A stretch of DNA of 64,000 nt from a virus (IMGVR_UViG_3300020042_009419:22742-86741), one strand, 5' to 3'. Shown: positions 17,164 to 61,366, counted from the stretch's first letter. A program made the numbers and translations. The notes: generated by a model not told the origin, from the sequence alone.

Positions 17164-19479
17164 ATGAAAACAATCATAGTACAAAAGCGCAACGGCCTTC
17201 GCGAGCCGTTGGCGTTGGAAAAATGGCAGACACAGATTGCAAAAGTATGCCAAGGTATTGCAGACGTTAGTCAAAGCATGGTAGAAATCAAGGCACAATT
17301 GCATTTTTATGATGGCATTACCACTAGAGAAATTGATGGTATAACACTCAGAGCCATTGTTGACTTGATTGATGTGGAAAGCAATCCTGGAGTTGGACAC
17401 ACCAACTATCAGTTTGTGGCCGGCAAGCAGCGACTTTCAATGTTGAGAAAAGATGTTTATGGTACCTACACGCCTCCTCACCTGTATGACATTGTAAAGA
17501 CCAATGTGGCCACTGGCCTGTACACACCCGAACTACTGGAGTGGTACACCGAAGCAGACTGGAACCGCATGAATGACATGCTGGATCATGCCAAGGATGA
17601 ACAATACAGTTATGCCGCCATTGAGCAGCTGATTGAAAAGTACCTGGTAAAAAATCGTTCAACAGGACAAACTTATGAAACTCCACAAATTAGATACATG
17701 GTCGCGGCCGCTACTGTATTTCACTCAGAAGAACCGAACACAGCGAGAATGCGCTATATCAAAGAATATTACAATGCGGCGAGTGATGGTCTTTTTACTC
17801 TTGCTACTCCTGTTTTGGCTGGTCTGGGGACTCCTACTAAACAATTTTCGAGTTGCGTCCTTATACGCAGCGATGACGACCTCGATAGTATATTTGCTTC
17901 GGGCGAGATGATGGCCAAGTATGCCAGCAAACGTGCTGGCATTGGTTTGGAGATTGGTCGCCTACGTCCCTTAGGTTCACCCATCCGTGGTGGTGAGATC
18001 ATGCACACAGGTATGATTCCTTTTTTAAAGAAGTGGTTTGGAGACTTGCGTTCGTGTTCACAAGGTGGTATCCGCAATGCTAGTGCTACTGTATTCTATC
18101 CCATCTGGCATCATCAGTTTGATGATCTCATTGTGCTCAAGAACAATCAAGGCACAGAAGAAACTAGAGTCAGACACATGGACTATGGTGTGGTCCTTTC
18201 TGCCTTCTTCTGGAGACGATTCAAGAACAAAGAACAAATAACATTCTTTGATCCCAACGAAGTTCCGGATCTGTATCAGGCATTCTACAGCAATACAGAA
18301 CTGTTTGAAGAACTCTATGTCAAATACGAAAAGCGCAAGGACCTTCGCAAGAAGACCATGAGCGCAGAAGAAGTGTTCAAGGGTGGCATCTTGAAAGAAC
18401 GCACAGACACCGGCCGTATCTATCTTGTGTTCATTGACAACGTGATGAAGCAGGGTCCATTTGATCCTGAGTATCATACCATCTACCAGAGTAACCTATG
18501 CTGTGAAATACTTTTACCTACTAAGTCTTTTAAGCGTCTCGATGATGCTGATGGCCGTATCGCTTTATGTACTCTTGGCTCCATTAATTGGGGTGCCTTC
18601 CGTAATCCTGAAGATATGCGCCGCGCTTGTCGCATTCTACATAGAAGCCTCAATAATATATTGGACTATCAAGATTTCTTATCAATTCAATCAAAACTAA
18701 GCAACGATGAAATTCGCCCGCTAGGCATTGGTATCACTAATCTTGCATACTGGCACGCCAAGCGTGGCCTGCAATATGGTGAAAAGGATTCACTACAAGA
18801 TGTTAAGAGCTGGATGGAACACCTGGCATTTTACTTGACCGAAGCCAGTGTGGAACTGGCCAAGGAACGTGGCCGGTGTCTAGGTTCAGACCACACACGC
18901 TATGGTCAAGGCACCTTCCCCTGGGAACTACGTGCTACAGGTGTGAATGAACTTGCAGACTTTGCTCCTGAGCTGCCATGGGAAGCCCTGCGCTCAGAAA
19001 TGAAAACGCACGGAGTACGCAATGCCACACAAATGGCAGTGGCTCCTGTGGAATCCAGTAGTGTGGTAATCAACTCAACCAACGGTATTGAAATGCCCAT
19101 GAGCCTGATCAGTGTTAAGGAATCCAAAGCCGGCAGCTTGACACAGGTGGTTCCAGAGTATCACAAACTCAAGAACCGGTATCAGCTGATGTGGGAACAG
19201 AAAGACTGTGACGGCTACTTGAAGACAGCGGCTGTGATTGCTGCCTATGTGGACCAGTCAATCAGTACCAACACATTTTACAATCCTGCACACTTTGCAG
19301 ATCGTAAGGTGCCAACTACTCTGATTGCTCGCAACTTGATGCAGTCACACTACTGGGGTCTGAAAACTTTTTACTACAGCCTGATCAACAAAACAGGCAG
19401 CAAGAATGTCACAGAAGATGCTCCACTTGAAGTGATTGATTTTGATGATCAAGAAGACTGCGAAGCATGCAAATTGTAA
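17164..19479 (+). CDS. nrdA: ribonucleoside-diphosphate reductase, class Ia alpha subunit
   Basis: N-terminal ATP-cone (VQKRNGLREPL). Active-site SNLCCEILLPT (E. coli SNLCLEIALPT). C-terminal CEACKL redox Cys pair. Confidence 0.9.
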   Translation: MKTIIVQKRNGLREPLALEKWQTQIAKVCQGIADVSQSMVEIKAQLHFYDGITTREIDGITLRAIVDLIDVESNPGVGHTNYQFVAGKQRLSMLRKDVYGTYTPPHLYDIVKTNVATGLYTPELLEWYTEADWNRMNDMLDHAKDEQYSYAAIEQLIEKYLVKNRSTGQTYETPQIRYMVAAATVFHSEEPNTARMRYIKEYYNAASDGLFTLATPVLAGLGTPTKQFSSCVLIRSDDDLDSIFASGEMMAKYASKRAGIGLEIGRLRPLGSPIRGGEIMHTGMIPFLKKWFGDLRSCSQGGIRNASATVFYPIWHHQFDDLIVLKNNQGTEETRVRHMDYGVVLSAFFWRRFKNKEQITFFDPNEVPDLYQAFYSNTELFEELYVKYEKRKDLRKKTMSAEEVFKGGILKERTDTGRIYLVFIDNVMKQGPFDPEYHTIYQSNLCCEILLPTKSFKRLDDADGRIALCTLGSINWGAFRNPEDMRRACRILHRSLNNILDYQDFLSIQSKLSNDEIRPLGIGITNLAYWHAKRGLQYGEKDSLQDVKSWMEHLAFYLTEASVELAKERGRCLGSDHTRYGQGTFPWELRATGVNELADFAPELPWEALRSEMKTHGVRNATQMAVAPVESSSVVINSTNGIEMPMSLISVKESKAGSLTQVVPEYHKLKNRYQLMWEQKDCDGYLKTAAVIAAYVDQSISTNTFYNPAHFADRKVPTTLIARNLMQSHYWGLKTFYYSLINKTGSKNVTEDAPLEVIDFDDQEDCEACKL

Positions 19480-19639
19480 CAGCAGCATGGAGACTATGGG
19501 CCAAGGCACTAGGAGAAAAAGCCTGTGCAAATAACAGCGATGCGGATCGTGTGGCCCTGGTAAGAACTGCTATAATTGCATGTTATGTTATCACAAACAT
19601 GTTTATTATAGCAGGTGTTATACGACATTGGTAAAAAAT

Positions 19640-20275
19640 ATGAGTTACATAGTAGGATCATTACCTCCCATCAAGTGCTGGATCAAAAGAGAATTTCTCT
19701 ACAACTTTGAAAAAGGTCACGGAGAATTAGAACCTGCCATCTGGGTCAGTCTCAAAGCACTAAGAGGACAGGTGTTTCGCATCGAGAGCTTGTTGCCCAA
19801 TTACGGAGCACTCTACGACAAACTGCCTATACATGCCTATGTATGGCAAGAAAACTACACAGGCACATTGCCTATTGACACCCTACAACTCTGGGACTGC
19901 ATGGGCTATCGTTTTACCATTATTGAAAAAATAGGTCTGCGTAATCTGGGTGTGAAATTTCTGGGCAAAGATCGGGAATGGCACTACGGCACTTACCTGT
20001 TTACCGTGGACTTTTGTGCCGACGGCATGGATGTGGACACAGGCTTTACCGAAGTTGCTGAAGAACACAAGAGCTTTAACTTTATTCGACTGGAAAATGG
20101 ACAGTTTGCTTGTCAGCCCAACAATCGATGCCTATGGTACGATCAAAGTTTGATCTCGGGTAATGTTAAGTTTCCAGACTTTAAAGCCGCACAAAATTTA
20201 TGGACAGTGGATGGCACACGCAAGTGGACCGCAGGAGATGATTGGTTTTACACCATTGAAGAAAAAAATGACTAA
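19640..20275 (+). CDS. hypothetical protein inserted between nrdA and nrdB
   Basis: ORF in the nrdA-nrdB intergenic slot. The ATG at 19640 (MSYIVGS) is preferred over 19580. Confidence 0.4.
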   Translation: MSYIVGSLPPIKCWIKREFLYNFEKGHGELEPAIWVSLKALRGQVFRIESLLPNYGALYDKLPIHAYVWQENYTGTLPIDTLQLWDCMGYRFTIIEKIGLRNLGVKFLGKDREWHYGTYLFTVDFCADGMDVDTGFTEVAEEHKSFNFIRLENGQFACQPNNRCLWYDQSLISGNVKFPDFKAAQNLWTVDGTRKWTAGDDWFYTIEEKND

Positions 20276-20290
20276 CAGAGAATTATTAAA

Positions 20291-21391
20291 ATGTCAAAAC
20301 AACAATACAATCTAGCAACACGAACAGACTATCTCAATCGCAAGATGTTCCTGGACCCTGCTGGTCCTGTAACTATTCAACGCTTTGAAGAAGTCAAATA
20401 CAAAAAGATTGCAGACTATGAAGCCACAGCACGTGGCTTCTTTTGGCAACCAGAAGAAGTCAGTCTCACCAAAGATTCAAATGACTTTAAAGATGCCAGC
20501 GAAACAGTCAAGCACATCTTTACCAGCAACCTGCTGAGACAAACTGCCTTGGATAGTTTACAAGGCCGCGGCCCCAGTCAGATCTTCATGCCAGTTGTGT
20601 CATTGCCAGAACTAGAAGCCTTGATCTACAACTGGACATTTTTTGAAACCAACATTCATTCAAAGAGCTACAGTCACATCATTCGCAACATCTACAACGT
20701 GCCCAAGGATGTGTTCAACACCATCCACGACACACAACAGATCATTGACATGGCATCAAGCGTGGGCAAATATTATGATGACCTGCACAGAATCAACTGT
20801 GCCAAAGAACTAGGCCAACCTGTGGAAGAAGTAGAACATGTGAGAGCAATCTACATGGCCTTGCATGCCAGCTATGCACTAGAAGCATTGCGTTTTATGG
20901 TGTCGTTTGCCACAAGCCTGGCCATGGTAGAGAACAAGATCTTCATGGGCAATGGCAACATCATCAGCTTGATCCTGCAAGATGAGATTCTGCACAAGGA
21001 ATGGACTGCTTACATGATCAATCAAGTGGTCAAAGAAGATCCACGCTTTGCAGCCGCCAAGATAGAATGCGAGGCTGAAGTGTATGAGTTGTACCTGGAC
21101 GTGATCCGTGAAGAAAAGGGCTGGGCAGACTACCTGTTCAACAAGGGACCTGTGATTGGACTCAACGCCAACATTCTCAAAGATTTCGTGGACTACACAG
21201 CCGTGGCTGCACTCAAGGAAATTGGTATCAAGTACCAGGAACCTGCACCTCGCTCGACACCTATTCCTTGGTTCAACAAGCATGTGAACACATCGAACAA
21301 ACAAACTGCACTACAAGAGTCAGAAAGCACTAACTATGTTATTGGAGTCATGAGCGATCAGCTGGACTACGATGCACTACCGGAGTTATAA
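20291..21391 (+). CDS. nrdB: ribonucleoside-diphosphate reductase, class Ia beta subunit
   Basis: Aligns closely with E. coli NrdB: FFWQPEEV, HIFTSNL, SYSHIIRNI. Confidence 0.9.
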   Translation: MSKQQYNLATRTDYLNRKMFLDPAGPVTIQRFEEVKYKKIADYEATARGFFWQPEEVSLTKDSNDFKDASETVKHIFTSNLLRQTALDSLQGRGPSQIFMPVVSLPELEALIYNWTFFETNIHSKSYSHIIRNIYNVPKDVFNTIHDTQQIIDMASSVGKYYDDLHRINCAKELGQPVEEVEHVRAIYMALHASYALEALRFMVSFATSLAMVENKIFMGNGNIISLILQDEILHKEWTAYMINQVVKEDPRFAAAKIECEAEVYELYLDVIREEKGWADYLFNKGPVIGLNANILKDFVDYTAVAALKEIGIKYQEPAPRSTPIPWFNKHVNTSNKQTALQESESTNYVIGVMSDQLDYDALPEL

Positions 21392-21393
21392 AA

Positions 21394-21849
21394 ATGAATG
21401 ATGATATTAGACAATCTATTGCAGCAACCGCACCACGAGTAGATGATGCTTGGTTTGGGTCAGGCAGTTTCAAAACTTTCAAACACCCCACACCCATCAG
21501 TTACGAAACTACCACAGACAATGGTACTGTGGACACTCTTGAAGGACCAGTCAAGTACACGGTTGGACACAAGATTATTACTGGACCCAAGGGCGAGCGG
21601 TATCCTGTGACACCTATCAAGTTTGCAGCCTTTTATGATGACAATGGCGACGGTACAGCCACTCCCAAAAAGATCATGAAGACAGCCAAGCTGGCAGATC
21701 ATGACGGTGTGTTGCACACTTCCTGGGGAGACCTAAACTACACCACAGGCAATGACTATATTGTTCGCCACGGTGCCGGTGATTACGGTGCTGTGAAACA
21801 AGACATCTTTGCCAAAACATACGACACATCGGCTCTACAAGGAAAATAA
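21394..21849 (+). CDS. hypothetical protein, PGDYG-like motif (HGAGDYG)
   Basis: 151 aa, directly after nrdB. Confidence 0.4.
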   Translation: MNDDIRQSIAATAPRVDDAWFGSGSFKTFKHPTPISYETTTDNGTVDTLEGPVKYTVGHKIITGPKGERYPVTPIKFAAFYDDNGDGTATPKKIMKTAKLADHDGVLHTSWGDLNYTTGNDYIVRHGAGDYGAVKQDIFAKTYDTSALQGK

Positions 21850-22074
21850 ATGAAAGCAATTGTATGGTCCAAAGACCAGTGCCCCTATTGCGACCAAGCC
21901 AAGGCATTGCTGAAGTCTCGCAATATTGAATTTGAAGAACGCAACGTGAGCCAGGACTGGACACGTGAACAACTACTAGAAGCAGTACCAACTGCTCGAA
22001 CATTACCACAGATCTTTTTGGATCAAGAACTGGTGGGTGGATTTACAGAACTTAGAAAGAAATTGACAGAATGA
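21850..22074 (+). CDS. glutaredoxin (NrdH/T4 NrdC-like)
   Basis: 74 aa with a CPYC active site in the context VWSKDQCPYCDQAK. Confidence 0.8.
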   Translation: MKAIVWSKDQCPYCDQAKALLKSRNIEFEERNVSQDWTREQLLEAVPTARTLPQIFLDQELVGGFTELRKKLTE

Positions 22075-22370
22075 AACATCTTGTAGGCAGCACAGTAACT
22101 TTTAAATTGAACTCTGGCGAAGAACTCATTGCCAAACTAGCACAAGCTGAAGGTGACTGGCTGGAAATCAGCTCACCAGTCAGCGTGGCACCTGGGCCAC
22201 AGGGTCTGGGACTGGTACCCAGCATGTTTACCGCAGATGCTGACGAAAAAGTCATGCTAAATATCAACAACGTTGTGATTTATGCATTGACAGATGATGC
22301 AGTCAAAATGAAGTACATTGAAGCACTCACGGGCATCAAAGTACCTGAAAAGAAACTTATACTAGGATAA
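22071..22370 (+). CDS. hypothetical protein
   Basis: Coupled to the glutaredoxin gene by an ATGA overlap. Confidence 0.4.
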   Translation: MKHLVGSTVTFKLNSGEELIAKLAQAEGDWLEISSPVSVAPGPQGLGLVPSMFTADADEKVMLNINNVVIYALTDDAVKMKYIEALTGIKVPEKKLILG

Positions 22371-22371
22371 C

Positions 22372-22629
22372 ATGCCAGCAGTGCAGCGAATAGGTGATGC
22401 GGATTCAGGTGGAGGGATAATCACCAGCGGCGTCAACTCTGTGCGAGTCAACGGAATCGTTGTGAGTGTCAATGGATCTAGTGTTAGTGCTCATGCTAAA
22501 CATCGCCCAGTTACATCCGGCGGTGTTAACTCTGTTAGAGCTGGAGGAATACCAATCAATGTTGCGGGCAATGCTGACACCTGCGGTCATGTGCGAACTG
22601 GGGGCAGCCCCAATGTGAGTGCCGGATAA
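22372..22629 (+). CDS. PAAR-repeat protein (spike-tip, T4 gp5.4-like)
   Basis: RIGDADSGGGIITSG...VNGI plus repeated PAAR-type beta-strand motifs. 85 aa. Confidence 0.65.
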   Translation: MPAVQRIGDADSGGGIITSGVNSVRVNGIVVSVNGSSVSAHAKHRPVTSGGVNSVRAGGIPINVAGNADTCGHVRTGGSPNVSAG

Positions 22630-24668
22630 TGCCCAGTATTACCACGCCATTGCAGTTGACAACCGCCGCATCCTTGTTGCAAAATCAAGGACTCAAGCCA
22701 TTTCCGCCTAGTCTGGCCACTGCCATACAAACATTCAACGCCACTACCTTGATTAGCAATCTAGCAGCAGCAGTGAGTTCGTACAAGTCACAGACATTTG
22801 CCACAGCCGCCACACTAAACAGCCTGCTGAGTATGGGCAACACGGTGTGTCCTGCTCTGGGCAACAGCATACCAGCCAGTCCCGTAGGCACATACACTTA
22901 TCTAAATACAGAATATCTTGTGAACTATCTGGGCTCAGTGGATGGATCAACTCTGGACCCGTCAGGATTTTCAAACTTGATCGAACAAACCTGCGCAGCA
23001 TATCTGGGTAATGGAGATCTGGGCCAATTCTCACAAGGCTTCATGGCAGTGCAAAGCTATATTGCTTCCACCAACAACTATATCAATTCGTCAGTGAACG
23101 CCAATCAGTACCTGGGTCCTACATTCACCAACATGGACACGCTGGTCACAGGGGGCATGACCGGTGTGACCACAGACCTTGAGTCATTTGGTGTGGATCT
23201 TGACAAGCAAGGCGAACTCTGGAACACAGCCAAACTAGATCTATACGGAACTCCTGCGGGCCTGCTGCAACAAATTTCCGCCCGGGCCGGCATACAAGGT
23301 CAGACAGTTCCGGCCCTGCAAAATGTCATGCTGGCCATGGGCATGACTGCGGCCGACATTGAAAACCTAATCACTGACAATCGTGTGGGTGTTTTCAACC
23401 CCACAGGTATCACCAACAACGAGTTTGATCGAGCACAACGGCTGGCATACAATGCATTCACCATGATCTCTGGTGACGTACTTGTACAGATCTTGGACAT
23501 CCTGGATGTGACCACACCCAACATCACCAGCCTTGAGCAGTTGTTGGATCCTGTAAAAACATTCCCACTCAGCTATCCATCACTGCAGGCACCTGGTCCT
23601 GTTGGGCCAGTGCCAATCTTCAATGCCAATGGTTCAGTCAACACCACTATCGCTCCCATTGTTAACTCTTACTTGCCTGCTGCAACCGGGTGTGACGAAC
23701 TGGGCAAAATTATTCCACCAGCAGATGCTGTGGCCAACAAGGCAATACAGCTGGGACTTCAACAGATCAACAACATACCAAATGTTCCCTTGCCCGATCT
23801 TGCTGAAGCTGTGCTGGGTGCTGTGAACAATCCCTGGCAGGTGACTGATGCATACTTGCCCAATGACGTGGTCAGCACTGGTGCTCCGATTCCTGAATAT
23901 TATCGGGCCACTCAAGAAGTACCTGCTGGCACAGACATCAACAACACCGCCTACTGGACTCCCACTACCCTGGGTGGACTAAGCACCATGTCGGGCCTGC
24001 CACTAATTCAAGCACAGACAACTCCTGTGGATGTGAGTGTGACTGATTACTTTGCCAACACAGTGGCCACTGGCACAGGACCCGATGGCACTATCACCAC
24101 TTATGATGTGCTGGGGCTGGCTCTGGATGCAGACAATTTTGCTGCTCAACTCAACACAGCAACCACAGCCGTCAATGCCCTACAGACCGCAGGAAGTCTG
24201 GCCACACTAAACACTGCCTACACCAACATCTTGCTGGCAGTCAACAATGCTGCGGTCATCACTCAAATTGCCAATGCCAATGCAGCTATCTCTGCACTCA
24301 GTGCCAGTCCGTATGTGACCACACTAAACACGGCCTGGGTGTACATGGCCAATCTAATGAACCTATCTGCTCGCTACACCACCGAAGCCGGCATAGATTA
24401 TTTCAATCTGCAGACTGGTGACAAGAACAGTGTGTATGGCTTTGTTCAGAATCTGCCACAGTATGCACGGTTGACTGCCAACGGTGATGCAGCAGAATTT
24501 CTAGACAATCTTGCTGACACTGCTGTGCTAGGTGGTCAGGCCCTGGTGGGTGCCATGCGTGAAGGACGCAATCAACAACGACTAGACGCCAATGGTATCT
24601 ACAACGCCAATCAAGTGCCCAGTAATGCAGAAGTTGAGCCAATTCCAGTGGTTTTACCTGTAAATTAA
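22629..24668 (+). CDS. large Thr/Ala/Asn-rich structural protein (baseplate or fibre?)
   Basis: 679 aa. Coupled to the PAAR gene by ATAATG. Confidence 0.4.
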   Translation: MPSITTPLQLTTAASLLQNQGLKPFPPSLATAIQTFNATTLISNLAAAVSSYKSQTFATAATLNSLLSMGNTVCPALGNSIPASPVGTYTYLNTEYLVNYLGSVDGSTLDPSGFSNLIEQTCAAYLGNGDLGQFSQGFMAVQSYIASTNNYINSSVNANQYLGPTFTNMDTLVTGGMTGVTTDLESFGVDLDKQGELWNTAKLDLYGTPAGLLQQISARAGIQGQTVPALQNVMLAMGMTAADIENLITDNRVGVFNPTGITNNEFDRAQRLAYNAFTMISGDVLVQILDILDVTTPNITSLEQLLDPVKTFPLSYPSLQAPGPVGPVPIFNANGSVNTTIAPIVNSYLPAATGCDELGKIIPPADAVANKAIQLGLQQINNIPNVPLPDLAEAVLGAVNNPWQVTDAYLPNDVVSTGAPIPEYYRATQEVPAGTDINNTAYWTPTTLGGLSTMSGLPLIQAQTTPVDVSVTDYFANTVATGTGPDGTITTYDVLGLALDADNFAAQLNTATTAVNALQTAGSLATLNTAYTNILLAVNNAAVITQIANANAAISALSASPYVTTLNTAWVYMANLMNLSARYTTEAGIDYFNLQTGDKNSVYGFVQNLPQYARLTANGDAAEFLDNLADTAVLGGQALVGAMREGRNQQRLDANGIYNANQVPSNAEVEPIPVVLPVN

Positions 24669-24701
24669 TCACCCTGCGCAAACACCACATAAATACTAGA
24701 C

Positions 24702-24733
24702 CAATAACAGTTGACATTCGTGTTCCAGCCTGT
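24702..24733 (+). promoter_or_regulatory. sigma70-type promoter (TTGACA-17-TATTAT) upstream of the porin gene
   Basis: Read directly from the sequence. Confidence 0.45.
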
Positions 24734-24765
24734 TATTATAAACTACTTCAACCAAGGAGAAATCA

Positions 24766-25647
24766 ATGAAGAAATATGCTTTAGTAATGGCCCTAGCATT
24801 GGCCACAACCCTAGCACAAGCTGACGCTACCGTTTACGGTAAAGCTCGTGTGTATCAAGAAAACACCAAGACCGGCACCGCCGAAGGTGTAACCGCGTTG
24901 ACAAACGATTCTAGTCGTTTCGGTATCAAAGCCACAGAAGCACTTGCCAATGGCATCACTGCTGGCGTTGTGCTTGAAACCGGCTACGGTGGCGACGCTC
25001 CTGCTGCAACCACACTGGGTGATCGCACCGCTGTTGTTGGCTTGTCTAACAAGTTGGGTTCAGTGGCTCTAGGTCGTGACAAACACACCATTGCTCGTAC
25101 ACTTGACAACTATGATGCCATGGGCAATGCTTTTGGTTCTAGCACAGCAGTTATCCATGCTGCACAAGGTTCACGTTTGCAAAATGCAGTGTTCTTGACT
25201 GCCAAGCCTGTTGCTGGACTTTCAGCCATGTATGCAATTGCCAACAGTGAAGTTGCCGGTGGCACTACAGAATCACAAGCCAGCAGCGTTGAATACACTG
25301 TGGGTGCTGTGAGCGCAACTGCTGCTCGTTATACCACTGGTACCAACAGCTACTCAGGCATTGTTGGTGCTAGATTGTCTTTGGCTTCCGGTACAAAAGT
25401 ATTTGGTATGTATTCCGAAGACAAAGTATCTGGCGTATCGACCACTGGTAAATCAGTTGGTGTTAACCAGGCCCTGGGTGCAGTGACTTTGCTTGCTGGC
25501 TACGGTGAGAACGACACTGTCAAGGCCTACAACGTTGGCGCATCTTATGCACTCAGCAAGAACACTCTGGTTCATGCACGTTATGTCAAAGAAGACTCTG
25601 CAACCAATGTACAGAAATTTGGTGCTGGCCTAGAAGTCAACTTCTAA
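24766..25647 (+). CDS. outer-membrane porin (Gram-negative trimeric porin family, betaproteobacterial type)
   Basis: Signal peptide MKKYALVMALALATTLAQA, then TVYGK... alternating amphipathic strands, and a C-terminal ...VNF ending in Phe. Confidence 0.7.
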   Translation: MKKYALVMALALATTLAQADATVYGKARVYQENTKTGTAEGVTALTNDSSRFGIKATEALANGITAGVVLETGYGGDAPAATTLGDRTAVVGLSNKLGSVALGRDKHTIARTLDNYDAMGNAFGSSTAVIHAAQGSRLQNAVFLTAKPVAGLSAMYAIANSEVAGGTTESQASSVEYTVGAVSATAARYTTGTNSYSGIVGARLSLASGTKVFGMYSEDKVSGVSTTGKSVGVNQALGAVTLLAGYGENDTVKAYNVGASYALSKNTLVHARYVKEDSATNVQKFGAGLEVNF

Positions 25648-25674
25648 ACTCCGCACTGTATAACGCAGTACAAC

Positions 25675-25702
25675 AAAAACCCGCTGAGGCGGGTTTTCTT
25701 TT
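25675..25702 (+). terminator. rho-independent terminator
   Basis: AAAAACCCGC-tgag-GCGGGTTTTCTTTT. Confidence 0.6.
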
Positions 25703-25704
25703 GG

Positions 25705-25733
25705 TTGACCAATAATGCCCCTGATGATATAAT
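25705..25733 (+). promoter_or_regulatory. repeated early-promoter module, copy 1
   Basis: TTGACC-17-TATAAT, then ACACACATAgACAGCAA, an A-rich stretch, GGAG, and the ATG at 25768. Confidence 0.55.
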
Positions 25734-25767
25734 ACACACATAGACAGCAACAAAACAGGAGTTTGAA

Positions 25768-26034
25768 ATGACACGCAAAATGAATCAGCCCAGAACAATC
25801 TTAAAGAACATTATGAACGATTGCTCTTGGCCCAGCGAGGCTCGTGCTAGAACAACCTGGACTGATGAACAGATTGCTGCGGATCTGCAAGATTTTGCAG
25901 AGCAGATGTGGCATAATCAGTATGTTGAAGTTGATACTACTAAAGTTACACCTGCTATGTTCCGCAAAGCTGCCGAAGTTCAGGAAGCATATTTGAAAGT
26001 TTTCTGGGCCGGTTGCCCCGAAGAAAACATGTAA
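25768..26034 (+). CDS. hypothetical protein (early cassette 1)
   Basis: RBS GGAG. 88 aa. Confidence 0.45.
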   Translation: MTRKMNQPRTILKNIMNDCSWPSEARARTTWTDEQIAADLQDFAEQMWHNQYVEVDTTKVTPAMFRKAAEVQEAYLKVFWAGCPEENM

Positions 26035-26039
26035 AACGG

Positions 26040-26068
26040 TTGACCAATAATGCTCCTGATGCTATAAT
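26040..26068 (+). promoter_or_regulatory. repeated early-promoter module, copy 2
   Basis: TTGACC-17-TATAAT plus ACACACACAGCAA. Confidence 0.55.
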
Positions 26069-26094
26069 ACACACACAGCAACAAAGGACACAGA

Positions 26095-26517
26095 ATGGAA
26101 CATGCTTTCGAAGGACCTGCAAAAGCTCGTGAGTTTTTGAGCAGCCTTATGCCTTCCATGCTTGATCAGCTGGGTCTGGGTCGTAGTCGCCGAGCCTTGC
26201 TGGTAAAAATCACCACTGATGTTCCAGACGGCATGGAAGGTGCAACCATGTACATAGACGTGGCCGACTGCTACTTGGTCTTGATCAAGCAGCCGAGCCG
26301 ACTGAGCAAAAGCTCACTGATAAACATGGCCACAACCCTGGCTCACGAAATGGTGCATGTGCGTCAGTTGGCCAAGGGTCAGTTGAAGTATCTGCCCCGT
26401 GAGGTCAAGCTCTGGATGGGACGCCGTTACACCAGCAAAACACGCTATCTGGACCAGCCCTGGGAACAAGATGCCTTTGCACGCCAGGAAATGCTCATGC
26501 GGCGAGCCATTGAATAA
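26095..26517 (+). CDS. HExxH zinc-metallopeptidase-motif protein (early cassette 2)
   Basis: TLAHEMVHVRQ. 140 aa. Confidence 0.5.
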   Translation: MEHAFEGPAKAREFLSSLMPSMLDQLGLGRSRRALLVKITTDVPDGMEGATMYIDVADCYLVLIKQPSRLSKSSLINMATTLAHEMVHVRQLAKGQLKYLPREVKLWMGRRYTSKTRYLDQPWEQDAFARQEMLMRRAIE

Positions 26518-26522
26518 TTTGG

Positions 26523-26551
26523 TTGACCGATATTGCCCAAACTGCTATAAT
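26523..26551 (+). promoter_or_regulatory. repeated early-promoter module, copy 3
   Basis: TTGACC-17-TATAAT plus ACACACATACACAGCAA. Confidence 0.55.
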
Positions 26552-26580
26552 ACACACATACACAGCAAATAGGAGTCACA

Positions 26581-26844
26581 ATGCTTACAGTCAATCAAAC
26601 TATTCGTTCTTACGCAGGCCGACCAGGCTGCATGTGCGGATGCAACGGCACCTACAACGAAGGCGAACGTGCCCGCAAGATGGCCATAACTGCCTTGCTC
26701 AAGGACCCTGCTGTGAGATTTGACACCTGGGGCGACGGCACCGAGGGAGCGATATTTGTTGTCACTGCTACCCGCAATCGTGTACTTTACCTCACCGCAG
26801 ACGGTGTGAAAACCGTGCAGGCACTGGGCATAAAGCACGATTAA
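26581..26844 (+). CDS. hypothetical protein (early cassette 3)
   Basis: RBS AGGAG. Contains CMCGCNGTY. Confidence 0.45.
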   Translation: MLTVNQTIRSYAGRPGCMCGCNGTYNEGERARKMAITALLKDPAVRFDTWGDGTEGAIFVVTATRNRVLYLTADGVKTVQALGIKHD

Positions 26845-26860
26845 ACTGTGAACTTTTCGG

Positions 26861-26889
26861 TTGACCCTTATTCACCGAAATGCTATAAT
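26861..26889 (+). promoter_or_regulatory. repeated early-promoter module, copy 4
   Basis: TTGACC-17-TATAAT plus ACACACATACACAGCAA. Confidence 0.55.
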
Positions 26890-26919
26890 ACACACATACA
26901 CAGCAAAAAGGAATCCCAA

Positions 26920-27198
26920 ATGAGTTACTACATTATTGCCAAGGCTACTGGACTTATTGTGTCAGATGGCCCAAATCGTACCCGTGCCTACAAGACGTTT
27001 GGATCGGCCTGTGCTACCCGAACTCGTGTTTGCCGCAAAGCAGGTTACACAGTTGATGAACTGGACGTGGTAAACACTCAGACCTACAAGCCACGTCAGG
27101 TCACTCGCAAGAACTTGATGAGTGGTCAAGAGTTCCAAGAGGACGTGAACACACCTTACTTCTGCTCGCCCTCGAGCGAAACTTTCTGGAGCATGTGA
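26920..27198 (+). CDS. hypothetical protein (early cassette 4)
   Basis: The ATG at 26920 follows the AGGAAT leader. The ORF track's 26848 start would lie upstream of the promoter. Confidence 0.45.
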   Translation: MSYYIIAKATGLIVSDGPNRTRAYKTFGSACATRTRVCRKAGYTVDELDVVNTQTYKPRQVTRKNLMSGQEFQEDVNTPYFCSPSSETFWSM

Positions 27199-27199
27199 G

Positions 27200-27355
27200 A
27201 TGAAAAACATTACAAAAATGGCCAATCGTTTGGTCAAGGATTTTAATTATCTAGGGTACGAAGATTTGACCTTAGAAGACTTACGACACATCTCTATTGA
27301 GACTGGAGAAGAGTTTGGGCTAGTGGCAATGGTGATTTATTCAAAGACCTATTGA
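27200..27355 (+). CDS. small hypothetical ORF (51 aa), below the ORF-track threshold
   Basis: ATG 2 nt after the upstream stop. Acidic peptide MKNITKMANRLVKDF... Confidence 0.25.
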   Translation: MKNITKMANRLVKDFNYLGYEDLTLEDLRHISIETGEEFGLVAMVIYSKTY

Positions 27356-27365
27356 AACAAATAGG

Positions 27366-27394
27366 TTGCCCAATATTCACCGAAATGCTATAAT
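27366..27394 (+). promoter_or_regulatory. repeated early-promoter module, copy 5
   Basis: TTGCCC-17-TATAAT plus ACACACATACACAGCAA. Confidence 0.5.
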
Positions 27395-27424
27395 ACACAC
27401 ATACACAGCAAAAAGGAACCCAAA

Positions 27425-27832
27425 ATGGCATACTTCAATCAAGAACGCAAAGCACAACTAGCACCGGCTATCAAGGCCATCCTGAAAAAGTACAAGGTCA
27501 AGGGTTCGCTTGCAGTACGCAATCATTCTAGTTTTGTGCTGAACATCAAGAGTGGTGCCATTGACTTCATTGGCAACTACAACAGCACCGTGGCAGCACA
27601 GCCCGGCGGATTCCGCAACGGCAACCCTGCTGTGAAGTCCCTGGATGTGAATCCCTACTGGTACCAGGAACACTTTGACGGTCGGGCACTGAGCTTCTTC
27701 AAAGAAATCTTTGCTGCAATGAACGTTGGAAATCATGACCGCAGCGACATCCAATCCGACTACTTTGATGTAGGCTGGTATGTTGACGTGAATGTGGGCG
27801 CCTGGAACCAACCATATGAGTTGACAAAATAG
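27425..27832 (+). CDS. hypothetical protein (early cassette 5)
   Basis: RBS AAAGGAA. 135 aa. Confidence 0.45.
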   Translation: MAYFNQERKAQLAPAIKAILKKYKVKGSLAVRNHSSFVLNIKSGAIDFIGNYNSTVAAQPGGFRNGNPAVKSLDVNPYWYQEHFDGRALSFFKEIFAAMNVGNHDRSDIQSDYFDVGWYVDVNVGAWNQPYELTK

Positions 27833-27833
27833 G

Positions 27834-27862
27834 TTGCCCAATATTCACCCAAATGCTATAAT
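27834..27862 (+). promoter_or_regulatory. repeated early-promoter module, copy 6
   Basis: TTGCCC-17-TATAAT plus ACACACATACAGCAA. Confidence 0.5.
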
Positions 27863-27893
27863 ACACACATACAGCAACAAAACGGAGCAAGAT

Positions 27894-28181
27894 ATGAAGA
27901 CTATTCAAGACATCAACTCAGCTATCATCAGTGGCACTTGGACCAACACAGAACTCAGTTCAATGATTGACGCTGTGAAATTTGCCCGTGCGCAACTGGG
28001 CCAGTCAACCAAGCGAAGTCTTGCAGTTGGCGACAATGTGAATTTTGACAGCAATAAACTGGGAAAGAATGTGACCGGAGTGGTCATGAAGATTGCTATC
28101 AAGTATGTCACAGTACGTTCAGTCAGTGGCTTGTGGAGAGTGCCTGCCAACATGTTGACCAAGGTTGGGGAGTACGCATAA
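27894..28181 (+). CDS. hypothetical protein (early cassette 6)
   Basis: ATG at 27894 (MKTIQDIN) lies downstream of the promoter. The ORF track's start falls inside the promoter. Confidence 0.45.
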   Translation: MKTIQDINSAIISGTWTNTELSSMIDAVKFARAQLGQSTKRSLAVGDNVNFDSNKLGKNVTGVVMKIAIKYVTVRSVSGLWRVPANMLTKVGEYA

Positions 28182-28182
28182 C

Positions 28183-28428
28183 ATGACCAATCGCAAAATT
28201 GACTTTTCCCAGTTGGGATTCAATCAGTACCAAGTGGCAGACATGACCATTGTTATGAACTTGAAGACCCCTGAAGAAATTCAGGACTGGATGGTGGCAG
28301 TTGGCGCAGAAGATGTGGCCTATGCTATCAGTTTGCTGGAACAAGCTGCCTTGCTTGAGCTGGACAGTGCAACTGACACCATGAAACGTTTTCCCGAAGC
28401 AATGGCTGCAATCAGAAAGGTAATGTAA
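28183..28428 (+). CDS. hypothetical protein
   Basis: ATG 2 nt after the upstream TAA. The ORF track's 28165 start is a TTG. Confidence 0.4.
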   Translation: MTNRKIDFSQLGFNQYQVADMTIVMNLKTPEEIQDWMVAVGAEDVAYAISLLEQAALLELDSATDTMKRFPEAMAAIRKVM

Positions 28429-28784
28429 TGGGACTGGACATGTATGCTTATGCTGCCGCCAAGGCAGCAACAAATGACGAAACTGGACAGCGTGAAATTG
28501 CTTACTGGCGCAAACATCCTAACCTACATGGCTGGATGGAGCGACTTGCTGAATCAAAAAATCTAGAGTACGACTCATTCAACGGCGTTGAACTAGAACT
28601 CGCCTGGGAGGATCTTGAAGCACTGGAACAGGCAGTTACTCACAAACAATTGCCTGCCACTAGCGGATTCTTTTTTGGGCAGGACAGCGACGACGAATAT
28701 CGAGAAAGTGATCTTGCGTTTGTTCGAGCAGCCAAAGCAGAAGTGTTTTTGGGACTAAAAGTTTTTTATAACAGTAGCTGGTAA
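28428..28784 (+). CDS. hypothetical protein
   Basis: Its ATG shares the A of the upstream TAA (TAATG). Confidence 0.4.
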   Translation: MGLDMYAYAAAKAATNDETGQREIAYWRKHPNLHGWMERLAESKNLEYDSFNGVELELAWEDLEALEQAVTHKQLPATSGFFFGQDSDDEYRESDLAFVRAAKAEVFLGLKVFYNSSW

Positions 28785-36600: not shown

Positions 36601-37053
36601 ATGACAAAAACACTAACCCTTCGTTCCCTTGACATTCCGTCAATTCACAAATTTGGCATCGGCTTTGATTCCATGTTTGACGAGTTGCAGCGAATTCACT
36701 CACAACAATCCAGCACCAACTATCCCCCATATAACGTGGTCCAAATCACTGAGGACGAGTATATGATCAGCTTGGCTGTGGCTGGATTTGGTTTTGATAA
36801 TCTTTCAGTGACTAAAGAGAAAAACTTTTTAATTATTGAAGGCAAAGAATATCAAGCCGACAGTGAACAAATTGTGCCCAACTATCTACACAAGGGCATC
36901 AGCAACAGAGACTTCCGCAGAGAATTCAAACTGGCTGACCATGTAGAAATAGAGAACGCACATCTTGAATTGGGTATTCTTAACATTCATCTAAAACGTG
37001 AAATCCCTGAAGAACAAAAGCCCAAATCAATTGCTATTACCTACAAATCGTAA
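36601..37053 (+). CDS. small heat-shock protein, Hsp20/IbpA family
   Basis: Alpha-crystallin domain (PPYNVVQITEDEYMISLAVAGF). Confidence 0.8.
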   Translation: MTKTLTLRSLDIPSIHKFGIGFDSMFDELQRIHSQQSSTNYPPYNVVQITEDEYMISLAVAGFGFDNLSVTKEKNFLIIEGKEYQADSEQIVPNYLHKGISNRDFRREFKLADHVEIENAHLELGILNIHLKREIPEEQKPKSIAITYKS

Positions 37054-37074
37054 TACAATAAACTAGTGTAAATA

Positions 37075-37098
37075 CAGTAGCGGGACAGTCCCGCTACT
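37075..37098. repeat. perfect 12+1+12 palindrome CAGTAGCGGGAC-a-GTCCCGCTACTG between hsp20 and clpS
   Basis: No T-tract on either side, so not a canonical intrinsic terminator. Confidence 0.4.
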
Positions 37099-37114
37099 GA
37101 CAACAAGGAAAATT

Positions 37115-37426
37115 ATGCCTCAATCAGATACCCGTACTAAAATCAAGCCACTAGAACAAATAAAAGAACCGCCGCTGTTTAGAGTAGTATATCTCAACGA
37201 CAATCAAACTTCCATGGAATTTGTTGTGGAAACCCTGATTGACTATTTCAACTACACCGCGGAAACTGCGGAACAGATCACAGTGGACATTCACGAAACT
37301 GGCGCTGCCACTGTGGCTGTGTTACCATATGAACTGGCCGAACAAAAAGGTGTAGAAGTCACGCTGTTGGCACGGGCACAAAGTTATCCTTTGCAGATCA
37401 AACTGGAACCAGAACCCTCAACCTAA
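37115..37426 (+). CDS. clpS: ClpS adaptor protein
   Basis: PPLFRVVYLNDNQTSMEFVVETL and ITVDIHETGAATVAV match the ClpS core. Confidence 0.75.
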   Translation: MPQSDTRTKIKPLEQIKEPPLFRVVYLNDNQTSMEFVVETLIDYFNYTAETAEQITVDIHETGAATVAVLPYELAEQKGVEVTLLARAQSYPLQIKLEPEPST

Positions 37427-42860: not shown

Positions 42861-42889
42861 TAGACAAATAATGAAAAATCTTGTATAAT
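42861..42889 (+). promoter_or_regulatory. sigma70-type promoter (TAGACA-17-TATAAT) only 6 nt upstream of the uvdE ATG (leaderless transcript)
   Basis: Read directly from the sequence. Confidence 0.4.
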
Positions 42890-42895
42890 AAGCGT

Positions 42896-43924
42896 ATGAC
42901 TACACCCCAAATTGGTTTTTGTTGCAAATGGCTCAATGATCCGTCCGAATGTGGCGGCATGAAGGTCAATGCTGCGGACCGTGAACTAAACGGCCGATCA
43001 ACCACCATGCGCTGGCTTCGCGAGCACAAGGACGAGGCCGAACAGCGGCAATGGGACATAATGAATCACAATGCCGCAGCGGCAGTTCGCATGATCGAAC
43101 GAGTAGCCACCTTGCCCGAAGGTCGTAGAATGGTACGGCTGGGTTCAGAAATGCTGCAAGGCTATACTGAACCTTCATGGATCGACTGGTGGCAGCGCAA
43201 AGAGATACAAGATCACTGTGAACGGATCTTTGCTCCTGTTGGTGAAACTGCCCGCAGACTGGGTGTGAGACTCAGCTTCCATCCCGGACAGTTCTGTGTG
43301 CTGGCCAGTGAGCATGACGTGATTGTGGAACGCAGCATACTAGAATTTGAGTATCATGCAGACATGGCTCGCTGGATGGGCTATGGAAAAAGTTGGCATG
43401 ACTCGGGATTCAAGATAAATGTACATTTAAGTGGCAAAGGTGGTGTCACTAAATTCCTAAAGACCTTGGGTCGCCTCAGTTCCGAGGCCCGGAATCTTAT
43501 CTCCATCGAAAATGACGAAATGACAAATGGCATCGATTCTACTTTACTTGTGGCTGAGCATGTGGCTCTTGTGCTGGACATACACCATCACTGGATCAAC
43601 AGCGGAGAATACATCACGCCTGCGGACCCTCGTGCGCAACGGGTTGTTGAGTCTTGGCGTGGTGTTCGTCCTGCTCTTCACTACAGTGTTAGCCGTGAAG
43701 ATATTTTGGTGGGTCACGATCACCGAGTTCGACCCGATCTTGCTGGACTACTTGCAGCAGGTTTTAAAAAGCAGAAGCTCCGGGCACACAGCGATATGAT
43801 GTGGAACACTGCCTGCAATGAATGGGCCCTGACATTTGGTGATCAGTGGGATATTCAGTGTGAGGCCAAGGGCAAGAATCTTGCCAGTGAACAGGTGTAC
43901 AATCAGCGACTGGCTCAGACATGA
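42896..43924 (+). CDS. uvdE: UV-damage endonuclease UvdE/UvsE
   Basis: RLSFHPGQFCVLAS...LISIENDE...LDIHHH matches the UvsE motifs RIDFHPDQFVVLNS, ENDD and DYHHH. Confidence 0.65.
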   Translation: MTTPQIGFCCKWLNDPSECGGMKVNAADRELNGRSTTMRWLREHKDEAEQRQWDIMNHNAAAAVRMIERVATLPEGRRMVRLGSEMLQGYTEPSWIDWWQRKEIQDHCERIFAPVGETARRLGVRLSFHPGQFCVLASEHDVIVERSILEFEYHADMARWMGYGKSWHDSGFKINVHLSGKGGVTKFLKTLGRLSSEARNLISIENDEMTNGIDSTLLVAEHVALVLDIHHHWINSGEYITPADPRAQRVVESWRGVRPALHYSVSREDILVGHDHRVRPDLAGLLAAGFKKQKLRAHSDMMWNTACNEWALTFGDQWDIQCEAKGKNLASEQVYNQRLAQT

Positions 43925-48926: not shown

Positions 48927-48975
48927 TTGACCAATAATCCGGTTAGTGCTATAATAACAGCACTAACCGGATTTC
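48927..48975 (+). promoter_or_regulatory. TTGACC-17-TATAAT promoter whose -10 box sits in the loop of a terminator-like hairpin
   Basis: CCGGTTAGTGCT-ataataac-AGCACTAACCGG, then ATTTCTTTTG. Confidence 0.45.
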
Positions 48976-49031
48976 TTTTGAACTTATGAAACCTTTATCT
49001 TTTGTGATACAGTTACCTAGACAGCGCAGAC

Positions 49032-55149: not shown

Positions 55150-55161
55150 TTTCTGGGTTGG

Positions 55162-55190
55162 TTGACCAATATTGCTCTTGATGTTATAAT
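55162..55190 (+). promoter_or_regulatory. repeated early-promoter module, copy 7
   Basis: TTGACC-17-TATAAT plus ACACACATACAGCAAAAGGAG. Confidence 0.55.
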
Positions 55191-55217
55191 ACACACATAC
55201 AGCAAAAGGAGCAGAGC

Positions 55218-55872: not shown

Positions 55873-55900
55873 AAAGCCCCTTTCGGGGCTTTCATTTTTT
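55873..55900 (+). terminator. rho-independent terminator (possibly bidirectional)
   Basis: AAAGCCCC-tttc-GGGGCTTT followed by CATTTTTT. Confidence 0.5.
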
Positions 55901-56126
55901 ACGCTTGGTCTACAAACTTCTTGAGTTCTTCGGCCTTGGCCACAATATCCGTACTGGACGGAAAACTTGGCAAGATTGGGTAAACCACTGCTCCTCGATT
56001 GGCATCAGTTAACTTTGAGTGATACTCATCGGTTAATGCCTGGCGAGTTTGGAAAATTGGCGTTTGAAGAATTTCGTTGGCCATTTTGAGAAGTTCGAGA
56101 CGAATCTCGTAAGGTGTTTTGCTCAT
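55899..56126 (-). CDS. hypothetical protein
   Basis: 75-aa ORF on the minus strand. Confidence 0.35.
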   Translation of the reverse strand: MSKTPYEIRLELLKMANEILQTPIFQTRQALTDEYHSKLTDANRGAVVYPILPSFPSSTDIVAKAEELKKFVDQA

Positions 56127-56198
56127 GTTTTTCTCCTGTGTATGTGTGTGTAATCTGCCAACTGCCCTATGCTTTTGGCAGAATGCTACACGAGCCTA

Positions 56199-57084: not shown

Positions 57085-57128
57085 TTCAAACTCGCTGTCC
57101 GATTCAGACCGGACACTAGGTAAACAAA

Positions 57129-57150
57129 GCCCGTGCAATGCGGGCTTTTG
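57129..57150 (+). terminator. rho-independent terminator
   Basis: AGCCCG-tgcaatg-CGGGCT followed by TTTTGCTTG. Confidence 0.55.
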
Positions 57151-57151
57151 C

Positions 57152-57180
57152 TTGACTGATATTGACTTTTGTAGTATAAT
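57152..57180 (+). promoter_or_regulatory. sigma70-type promoter (TTGACT-17-TATAAT) with an ATG 6 nt downstream (leaderless)
   Basis: Read directly from the sequence. Confidence 0.45.
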
Positions 57181-57186
57181 GTACAC

Positions 57187-57639
57187 ATGCTAAAAAACTT
57201 ATTCAAACGCCTGGGCCGATACCGTGTGATCATGGATCGAGTAGATGGTGAACCTTACCTGGAACGCTACTATGTGTTTCTTCGAGACCGCTCATGGTTC
57301 CCCTTCAACATCTTTGTTCACAAGTTTCTCAAGAGTGATCCTGATGATGTGCATGACCATCCGTGGCCGTTTGCCACATTAATTCTTCGAGGTGGATACT
57401 GGGAATGGCGTCCCTTGTTTGACGCTCAAGGTCGTCGCCAAGGTGAAACAGCCCGTTGGTGTGGTGCAGGAAGTTTTCGCACAGCACGGGCCAACACTTA
57501 CCATCGTATTGAGCTGGATCCTGACGTCACCTGCTGGACCTTGTTCATGCCCGGTGCCAAGCAACGTGACTGGGGATTCCTTGTAAAAAACAAGTGGGTG
57601 CAGTGGGAACAATATTTAATTCAAAGGAAAACAACATGA
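57187..57639 (+). CDS. hypothetical protein
   Basis: 150-aa ORF. Confidence 0.4.
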   Translation: MLKNLFKRLGRYRVIMDRVDGEPYLERYYVFLRDRSWFPFNIFVHKFLKSDPDDVHDHPWPFATLILRGGYWEWRPLFDAQGRRQGETARWCGAGSFRTARANTYHRIELDPDVTCWTLFMPGAKQRDWGFLVKNKWVQWEQYLIQRKTT

Positions 57640-60282: not shown

Positions 60283-60321
60283 TCCAGACACCGCCGACTG
60301 TTCAACAACTCAAAGGACTCA

Positions 60322-60564
60322 ATGTTCACTCAAATGGCTCAGCAACTGTTACGACGTCACGAACCCAGTGCAGAACCCAACTCGATTGATCTAGACAGCT
60401 ATCTAGACTGGCAACGCAATCACACATTTGAGGCCCTACAAAACATACGTTATGGACAGAGTTTTTGCAATCACTTTGACATCACTGACAATCGCATTTT
60501 CTATGAACGTGACTGGGCTCGCTGTGACAAACTGATTCGAAAAGAATGGCTGAGCCGTCCCTAA
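60322..60564 (+). CDS. hypothetical protein
   Basis: 80-aa ORF. Confidence 0.35.
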   Translation: MFTQMAQQLLRRHEPSAEPNSIDLDSYLDWQRNHTFEALQNIRYGQSFCNHFDITDNRIFYERDWARCDKLIRKEWLSRP

Positions 60565-60773: not shown

Positions 60774-60788
60774 ACATAATTAATTGTA

Positions 60789-61025: not shown

Positions 61026-61026
61026 C

Positions 61027-61302: not shown

Positions 61303-61366
61303 TCAGGTTGACTTTTATTTGCCATGATGCTACAATCAAGCGTATGACAAACACCGGAGCAGATCA

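Follow-up and report, generated by a model that had tools for sequence, protein, structure and literature searches.

The closest described counterparts of the locus presented here come from T4-type phages, in which repeated strong sigma-70-like promoters ending in a Shine-Dalgarno (SD) sequence and an ATG, known as PeSLs, or promoter-early stem-loops, fill the intergenic space before small genes annotated without function (PMC2839356, PMC4122927). The early promoters of phage T4, also called "uber" promoters and composed of UP, -35, TGn and -10 elements, are read by the unmodified host RNA polymerase (PMC2988021). Phage PA5oct also depends on the host RNA polymerase, and 32 promoters with the motifs TTGAC and TATAATA have been described in it (PMC7318152). 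At the level of the messenger RNA, translation is enhanced by ACA triplets located upstream of the SD, G being the most harmful substitution (PMC3879156), and CA repeats aid leadered and leaderless mRNAs alike (PMC9031893, which cites Martin-Farmer & Janssen 1999). The present analysis concerns a 64,000-nt stretch of viral DNA (IMGVR_UViG_3300020042_009419:22742-86741, hereafter the window), in which a module of about 60 nt is found in seven copies on the plus strand, six of them within 25703-27893 and the seventh from 55160, each followed by an unrelated small open reading frame (ORF) (Table 1). Judged from its sequence, this module is a clade-specific, standardised promoter-discriminator-leader cassette that doubles as a gene-shuffling site, a variant of a design already known from T4.

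The module has a fixed order: GG, TTG(A/C)CC, a 17-bp spacer ending in TGn, TATAAT, ACACAC, A(T)ACA(C)AGCAA, a few A/C, GGAG or GGA, and the ATG. The pattern TATAATACACACA occurs exactly seven times, and the 48-nt module consensus, allowing up to three mismatches, gave three matches against 0.00 expected. The -35 hexamer, TTGACC in five copies and TTGCCC in two, is near TTGACA; the -10 is TATAAT at six of six bases; and both the 17-bp spacer and an extended -10 TGn directly before TATAAT are present in 7/7 copies (TGT in the copy at 55162). With hexamer function read from the consensus, the module is a near-consensus sigma-70-type promoter. The ATG follows 27-35 nt past the last -10 base. The modules occupy the entire intergenic space, the preceding stop codon lying 1-16 nt upstream of the -35, and the AT content of the 25 nt upstream of them, mostly the 3' end of the preceding ORF, ranges from 48% to 76%, compared with 54% for the window. 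Strong sigma-70-consensus promoters are in fact spread along the whole plus strand, and the seven full modules are the subset with extended conservation.

An earlier note on this DNA had described six tandem copies and a seventh at 55162, with exactly 17 bp between the -35 and -10 boxes, and the pattern search confirmed all of this, with one module per small gene. The "8-bp spacer" in the pattern given there had no matches as written, because the unspecified stretch is 9 bp, an arithmetic slip, and the distance from the -10 to the ATG, put there at about 30-35 nt, is wider at its lower end.

Table 1. Modules, cassette ORFs and associated features of the window (aa, amino acids; TSS, transcription start site; UTR, untranslated region)
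Feature	Position	Strand	Details
Intrinsic terminator after porin gene	25676..25697	+	9-bp stem then T-run, -13.3 kcal/mol; directly upstream of module 1
Module 1	25703..25767	+	GG, -35 TTGACC at 25705, 17-bp spacer with TGA, -10 at 25728-25733, ACACAC, predicted TSS 25740, 28-nt UTR with GGAG
ORF 88 aa (cassette 1)	25768..26034	+	Absent from relative L023
Module 2	26038..26094	+	-35 at 26040, -10 at 26063, predicted TSS 26075, 20-nt UTR with GGA
ORF 140 aa, HExxH (o140)	26095..26517	+	Predicted small zincin metallopeptidase fold, SprT/WLM-like
Module 3	26521..26580	+	-35 at 26523, -10 at 26546, predicted TSS 26558, 23-nt UTR
ORF 87 aa	26581..26844	+	77%-identical homolog in L004, whose flanking modules have other spacers; 90-aa ORF instead in L160
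Module 4	26859..26919	+	-35 at 26861, -10 at 26884, predicted TSS 26896; only copy with a 7-bp inverted repeat (TTTCGGT/ACCGAAA) around the -35
ORF 92 aa	26920..27198	+	ORF call
ORF 51 aa	27200..27355	+	Without own promoter; coupled to the 92-aa ORF via TGAGATG
Module 5	27364..27424	+	-35 TTGCCC at 27366, -10 at 27389, predicted TSS 27401
ORF 135 aa (o135, phrog_10415)	27425..27832	+	Highly conserved family; absent in L160
Module 6	27832..27893	+	-35 TTGCCC at 27834, -10 at 27857, predicted TSS 27869
ORF 95 aa	27894..28181	+	Weak, borderline match to MS_channel beta-domain
UvdE endonuclease gene, second leaderless candidate	42861..43924	+	TAGACA-17-TATAAT-AAGCGT-ATG at 42896
Divergent copy, composite terminator-promoter	48927..48985	+	TTGACC-17-TATAAT
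Module 7	55160..55217	+	-35 at 55162, -10 at 55185, predicted TSS 55197, 21-nt UTR
ORF 63 aa	55218..55409	+	L212 homolog directly after porin gene, replacing the six-cassette array
Leader-like copy	56127..56170	-	ACACACACATACACAGGAG, N6, ATG; before 75-aa ORF (56126..55899)
Divergent copy	57128..57186	+	Terminator hairpin, T-run abutting -35 TTGACT (57152), TATAAT (57175), GTACAC, ATG
ORF 150 aa (phrog_4786), leaderless candidate	57187..57639	+	ATG is the 7th nt after the -10

The probable start of transcription emerges from promoters in related contigs, whose loci are labelled here with L and a number. Across 551 of these promoters, the first ATG of ORFs of at least 50 aa has a bimodal distribution after the -10, with a spike exactly at +7 and a broad peak at +26 to +35. 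The spike comprises 74 ATGs, 63 of them opening ORFs of at least 50 aa. Among the genes concerned is a conserved one of the GIY-YIG type (111-112 aa; Pfam, 26.2 bits), whose ATG lies at +7 in nearly all cases and at +6 in a few. Leaderless translation requires a 5'-terminal AUG, and in the leaderless transcript of lambda cI from PRM the ATG is placed 7 nt after the -10 hexamer. Given this requirement, the +7 spike is indirect but strong evidence that transcription starts at the seventh base after the -10, the A 7 nt past TATAAT. With this start, ACACAC is most likely an untranscribed discriminator, the RNA of the window modules would begin with AUACACAGCAA, and the UTRs would measure 20-28 nt, of which only about 11 nt belong to the conserved stretch.

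The putative leaderless arrangement is present in about 11% of the 551 clade promoters (loci L004-L114), which is unusually frequent for phages expected in Gram-negative hosts. A promoter at 61308-61375 of the window presents a related geometry: an ATG 8 nt after its -10 opens only a 7-codon mini-ORF, which ends in the SD-ATG region of a 112-aa gene at 61367. This mini-ORF, conserved in L079, possibly represents a 5'-terminal upstream AUG.

The leader RNA is predicted to be open. Over their first 48 nt, the seven predicted transcripts have a mean folding energy of -2.5 kcal/mol, against -8.1 +/- 3.6 kcal/mol for random 48-nt windows, and the minimum free energy is -0.5 to -2.2 kcal/mol for 6/7 predicted 5' ends. 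The extension of the conservation past the -10 could suggest a structured RNA that serves for processing, for stabilisation or as a riboswitch-like leader, as the earlier note had proposed in part. This reading is extremely improbable for a UTR of just 20-28 nt with so little predicted structure, and a search of the whole window against Rfam gave no family at the gathering threshold, the one sub-threshold match in the array scoring 19.9 bits against a gathering score of 49 bits. What stands of the proposal is that the conservation continues past the hexamers into the leader, which is real and clade-wide, although its first six nt (ACACAC) are most likely untranscribed; and a shared element in the RNA would then be a ribosome-loading leader rather than a structured signal for processing or stability.

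The composition of the leaders points the same way. In the UTRs of 367 leadered clade genes, the density of ACA is 0.113 per nt, compared with a background of 0.022 and with 0.047 expected from UTR composition. Leaderless coding sequences have an ACA density of 0.079 in their first 30 nt and 0.035 at nt 33-60, and these first 30 nt share the A/C-rich, T- and G-poor composition of the UTRs. Because leaderless coding starts show the same bias, the A/C preference appears to be tied to the 5' end and the ribosome-binding zone and to no particular sequence. In the window UTRs nearly all G residues are in or next to the SD, except the conserved G of ACAGCAA. By analogy with the enhancers cited above, the leader fits an ACA-rich, G-poor ribosome-loading region.

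The comparison of 15 orthologous module pairs, between the window and the loci L079, L023 and L087, revealed that conservation depends strongly on position. No changes were found in the -10 hexamer (0/90) or in the discriminator (0/90), and one at +1 to +11 (1/165), while GG plus the -35 diverged by 4.2% and the spacer by 12.5%. The ORFs diverged by 2.8-4.0% over all positions and by 6-9% at third codon positions, so the spacer is at least as free as synonymous sites. The seven paralogous spacers of the window, which include the palindromic CAATATTG / TTGGTTGACCAA, have a mutual identity of 0.67, against 0.31 to the promoters of other loci, and more distant lineages have wholly different spacers. 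Since paralogous spacers are alike while orthologous spacers diverge fast, recombinational homogenisation of the copies is suggested. The discriminator and the first 11 transcribed bases appear either to be functionally constrained or to be held identical by this same homogenisation.

The same data bear on the idea that the similarity of the modules is a mere by-product of recent tandem duplication of whole cassettes, which the tandem placement of the copies and their near-identity over about 50 nt might suggest. The ORFs and the cassette bodies, compared with one another, have no mutual similarity; the module persists next to orthologous genes with 23-30% divergence and recurs at hundreds of promoters on other contigs; and the constraint is specific to the -10, the discriminator and +1 to +11 as opposed to the spacer. 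This explanation is thus already refuted, with hardly any probability left to it. The earlier note had named such duplication as the outcome that would undo its reading and had seen no similarity among the ORFs by eye. On both counts its judgement is borne out, with unrelated ORFs and with modules kept at orthologous sites and across the phage clade.

The near invariance of the discriminator and of +1 to +11 across paralogs as well as orthologs, and the likeness of the spacers within the lineage (0.67, with the palindromes mentioned), could also mean that discriminator plus leader, or the lineage spacer, is the site of a trans-acting regulator that switches all module genes together. The candidates would be a protein, from either phage or host, or a GcvB-type small RNA rich in G/U; GcvB silences ACA-rich enhancers (PMC3879156), and the mechanism of the T4 early shut-off is still unexplained (PMC2988021). 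However, the orthologous spacers diverge faster than third codon positions and differ wholly between lineages, and are thus poorly constrained. No convincing anti-leader sequence is present in the window, the best plus-strand match being the minus-strand leader copy itself, and no regulator gene was identified among the window genes. The presence of the same A/C-rich composition inside leaderless coding regions argues for a general property and not for a specific site, and we regard such a regulator as rather unlikely. It is likewise unlikely, and to a degree that we would call doubtful, that ACACAC-AUACA(C)AGCAA is a common address tag by which one trans factor controls all module-driven mRNAs, the same element being also a recombination site; this factor could be a small RNA rich in G/U, a protein that binds RNA or a nuclease specific for ACA. 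If this were true, these phages would have a distinct early translation programme, mixing leaderless messages (about 11% of promoters) with ACA-tagged ones.

Comparisons with relatives showed that the array changes in its cassettes. Locus L023, collinear with the window over 14972-28495, has one module in place of module 1, the 88-aa ORF and module 2, and in a three-way alignment of its junction the sequence to the left of module 1 passes into that to the right of module 2 through a crossover within the module. In L212, other cassettes lie between the porin homolog and the homolog of 28179 onwards, including the 63-aa ORF which the window has at 55.2 kb. Locus L160 is without the 135-aa ORF and has a different ORF, of 90 aa, in place of the 87-aa ORF, while its 51-aa ORF is present. 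At the position of this last ORF, L087 contains some 950 bp comprising an ORF of 81 aa together with a module of its own, and L039, L079 and L023 have nothing. In L079, a 95%-identical relative, positions 1-1651 are homologous to 60050-61712 of the window and lie just 2.5 kb upstream of the array, and the DNA past 28201 differs too, a layout that, as it reads in the contig, points to a large rearrangement or to the array being placed differently.

A scan of IMG/VR with TATAATACACACATACA found at least 119 loci, many of them homologous to the window with 65-98% identity. Among the matches listed, these loci contain 561 distinct TTGACN-N17-TATAAT sites, and the 471 of them lacking the search word still give GG-TTGACA..tg.TATAAT-AcAcACATA followed by an A/C-rich stretch and GGAG. 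A homolog of o135 with 71% identity, detected by protein similarity only and encoded on a 337-kb contig, has the same architecture with a different spacer, and is located within another array with one promoter per small ORF. In 185,579 bacterial species genomes, only 103 matches were found, mostly single, in unrelated taxa and consistent with chance, the exceptions being phage contigs co-binned into metagenome-assembled genomes (MAGs). Against cultured phages, a megablast of the 24-32 kb region gave no match and a blastn of the module only a chance 29-nt match. Variovorax phage V45v66, the isolate with the closest o135 homolog, has no such promoters in 40 kb, and the first 50 kb of PA5oct contain six consensus-like sites, none of the six with the ACACAC discriminator or the leader. 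The module occurs throughout the clade; cultured phages lack it, and bacterial genomes are essentially free of it.

This distribution is relevant to a further proposal, in which a phage-encoded sigma factor or RNA polymerase reads the modules and GG and ACACAC are its specificity determinants. The GG before the -35 and the ACAYAC discriminator are indeed clade-wide and outside the Escherichia coli consensus, and the pattern is all but missing from the bacterial genomes scanned. On the other hand, the hexamers, their spacing and TGn all follow the textbook consensus for sigma-70, the 64-kb window revealed no gene for a sigma factor or RNA polymerase, and PA5oct, the closest cultured relative by its helicase, depends on the host enzyme with TTGAC/TATAATA promoters (PMC7318152), which makes a dedicated phage enzyme very unlikely.

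We therefore consider it likely that each small gene carries a standard expression module, composed of a sigma-70-type promoter, a fixed discriminator and an open leader, which is also a crossover site. The array would be a hyperplastic stretch in which every small gene has its own module. The host housekeeping RNA polymerase, of sigma-70 type, would read it and start the RNA at the A 7 nt past TATAAT, giving a leader of 20-28 nt, AUACA(C)AGCAA..GGAG, rich in A/C, poor in G and free of structure. Three sources may contribute to the conservation: selection acting on the DNA, where the discriminator and start site would favour efficient initiation; selection acting on the mRNA, whose first ~30 nt would be kept open and ACA-rich for ribosome loading, by analogy with enterobacterial ACA/CA enhancers; and recombinational homogenisation among copies, which would keep the lineage-specific spacers alike. 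With near-identity over ~50 nt, the copies could serve as crossover points through which related phages acquire, lose and swap cassettes of ORF and module. By analogy with T4 early promoters, expression would take place immediately after infection. Inspection of the array found no terminators between cassettes 1-6; because of this, nested transcripts would be expected to read through into 28183 and beyond.

Some points weigh against this explanation. The start site and the promoter activity are deduced from sequence, and the assignment to host sigma-70 from the consensus; UP elements were not evident upstream of the modules, as judged by AT content only. The inspection for a phage sigma or RNA polymerase gene covered 64 kb of a genome that probably exceeds 200 kb. 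The role of +1 to +11 may lie at the level of transcription (promoter escape) or of translation, and the data fit both. Regarding recombination, a clean crossover within a module was seen at one junction only, that of L023, and the insertion or deletion of the 51-aa ORF is not bounded by modules.

Composite terminator-promoters are present at unit boundaries of the window, at 25676-25733, 48927 and 57128-57186. The earlier note's two divergent copies, at 48927 and 57152, do exist, and both turned out to be such composites, the latter being also a leaderless candidate. At 48927 the -10 box is enclosed in a hairpin loop; the hairpin has a 15-bp stem (-26.7 kcal/mol, z -7.4) and precedes a U-run, so that read-through should stop there and the promoter's own transcript should begin within the 3' arm. 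The leader-like copy on the minus strand sits behind a weak TGG-CAGATT promoter only. The same leader occurs in L048 and L065, in both about 36 nt 3' of the promoter and past a hairpin, and these three cases are sequence hints that the leader may act away from the start site.

Regarding the cassette products, the ORF sizes of the earlier note (88, 140, 87, 92, 135, 95 and 63 aa) are correct, with the 51-aa ORF at 27200-27355 overlooked. Its statement that, beyond one HExxH protein, the ORFs have no recognisable function is contradicted for o140 and o135, which belong to large conserved families, and holds for the others, for which family and profile searches gave nothing solid. For o140, with 900 homologs, the structural model (predicted local distance difference test, pLDDT, 80.7) has zincins as its best matches, notably the SprT domain of SPRTN (probability 0.99, template modelling score 0.50). 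A weak match to a gene annotated as a WLM protease domain protein agrees with this, and by its model the protein has a SprT/WLM-like zincin fold. The o135 family is very abundant, with 3045 homologs, 66-98% identity among the best 120 of the 3045, and 28 invariant residues across 31 sequences; relatives are also found in phages phiM12, Atu_ph07, Melnitz and KB57. Its AlphaFold2 model is confident (pLDDT 84.5) and a fold search against the PDB gave no match; in profile searches against PDB sequences neither o135 nor o140 had a significant match. Roles of the cassette ORFs in host takeover or anti-defence are conjecture.

The window encodes a primase, a DnaB helicase, both ribonucleotide reductase subunits, a DNA ligase and UvdE, together with ClpP, Hsp20, NifU/IscA, PstS, a radical SAM enzyme and a porin; no tRNAs were found in it. 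It belongs to the non-structural part of the genome, probably larger than 200 kb, of an uncultured jumbo phage, whose DnaB helicase has the jumbo Pseudomonas phage PA5oct as closest cultured relative (47% identity); PA5oct and Atu_ph07 are its best cultured matches, at 46-47%. Host-like metabolic and stress genes are dense at 13532-14228, 44269-45264, 36601-37426, 54559-55149 and 486-2018, comprising NifU and IscA-type iron-sulfur assembly proteins, PstS, Hsp20, ClpP with a Clp-related protein, and the radical SAM enzyme. The porin gene (24711-25697), of the Gram-negative Porin_4 type (E 4e-23), has its own promoter, TTGACA-17-TATTAT, and terminator. Since its 307 homologs are all unnamed metagenomic proteins, the porin is apparently conserved in the phage clade.

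Contigs of several MAGs are homologous to the phage, namely those of Haliscomenobacter sp. EUL_031 (183, 70 and 43 kb), Opitutia ELA717 and Sediminibacterium EUL_022, the MAG-contig loci being L160, L188, L192, L199, L203, L212, L156 (NZ_JBBAKG01), L154 and L140. The EUL_031 contigs are ~84-95% identical to the window phage. These contigs look like co-binned phage DNA and were rejected as host sequence. The genome scan and the porin homologs gave no host, only such co-binned contigs and unnamed metagenomic proteins. The phages of this clade are probably freshwater phages.

For a large group of uncultured giant phages without a cultured representative, the module would provide a sequence-defined, clade-wide expression signal. 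In metagenomic contigs this signal could be used to annotate transcription units, to correct start codons, including leaderless ones, and to flag candidate early genes. The fixed discriminator, the start site and the ACA-rich leader together are predicted to form a compact and strong natural expression part, and the large conserved families of o135 and o140 make them good targets for functional screens. The use of regulatory repeats as gene-shuffling sites, known from T4 PeSLs, would also be extended to modules without stem-loops in a lineage for which the helicase comparison gave no T4-type affiliation.

Among the known systems, PA5oct resembles the window phage in its TTGAC/TATAATA promoters and differs in having neither the discriminator nor the leader in its first 50 kb. 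The lambda cI type of leaderless transcript is matched by the genes at 57187 and 42896 and by 63 cases in related contigs, with an ATG 7 nt after the -10 and an A/C-rich coding start, a likeness that concerns the divergent copies and not the seven full modules. The ACA/CA enhancers share with the leader two to three ACA just upstream of the SD and the avoidance of G, and the clade shows the same bias downstream of the AUG in leaderless genes; the enhancers were defined by mutagenesis of Salmonella and E. coli genes, whereas the likeness here is one of composition and conservation.

The T4 early promoters are like the module in their near-consensus -35, TGn and -10, in extra conserved positions, in their number and in their location before small non-essential genes. 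Their -35 is GTTTAC-like; the module differs from them by its GG-TTGACC -35, the lack of a clear UP element, and the clade-specific ACACAC and ACA-rich leader. The PeSLs are alike in layout, since both they and the modules stand before small genes in a variable region, where close relatives differ by insertions, deletions and replacements with crossovers inside the repeated motif. PeSLs also form excised mini-circles. Their hosts are T4-type phages, while the helicase relatives of the window phage are PA5oct and Atu_ph07, and the stem-loop that defines a PeSL, a stable one in or across the promoter that works as a terminator or attenuator, is missing from most window copies: the best stems across the -35 measure 3-5 bp in 6/7 modules and 7 bp in module 4. 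The stem-loops of the window are the separate terminator before module 1 and those of the divergent copies at 48927 and 57152, besides the weak 7-bp repeat at module 4. Over the clade, -35 stems show a modest excess (mean 4.20 against 3.87 in permutations; 33 of at least 7 bp against ~8 expected). Some clade promoters have an inverted repeat around the -35 with apparent compensatory changes (AAAACGGT/ACCGTTTT versus AGAACGGT/ACCGTTCT), in some cases followed by T-runs. As the stem-loop is not general, a classification of the seven copies as PeSLs was rejected, and they are treated as a variant without the stem that belongs to another phage lineage and in which, unlike in PeSLs, the fixed discriminator and the first part of the leader are conserved as well.

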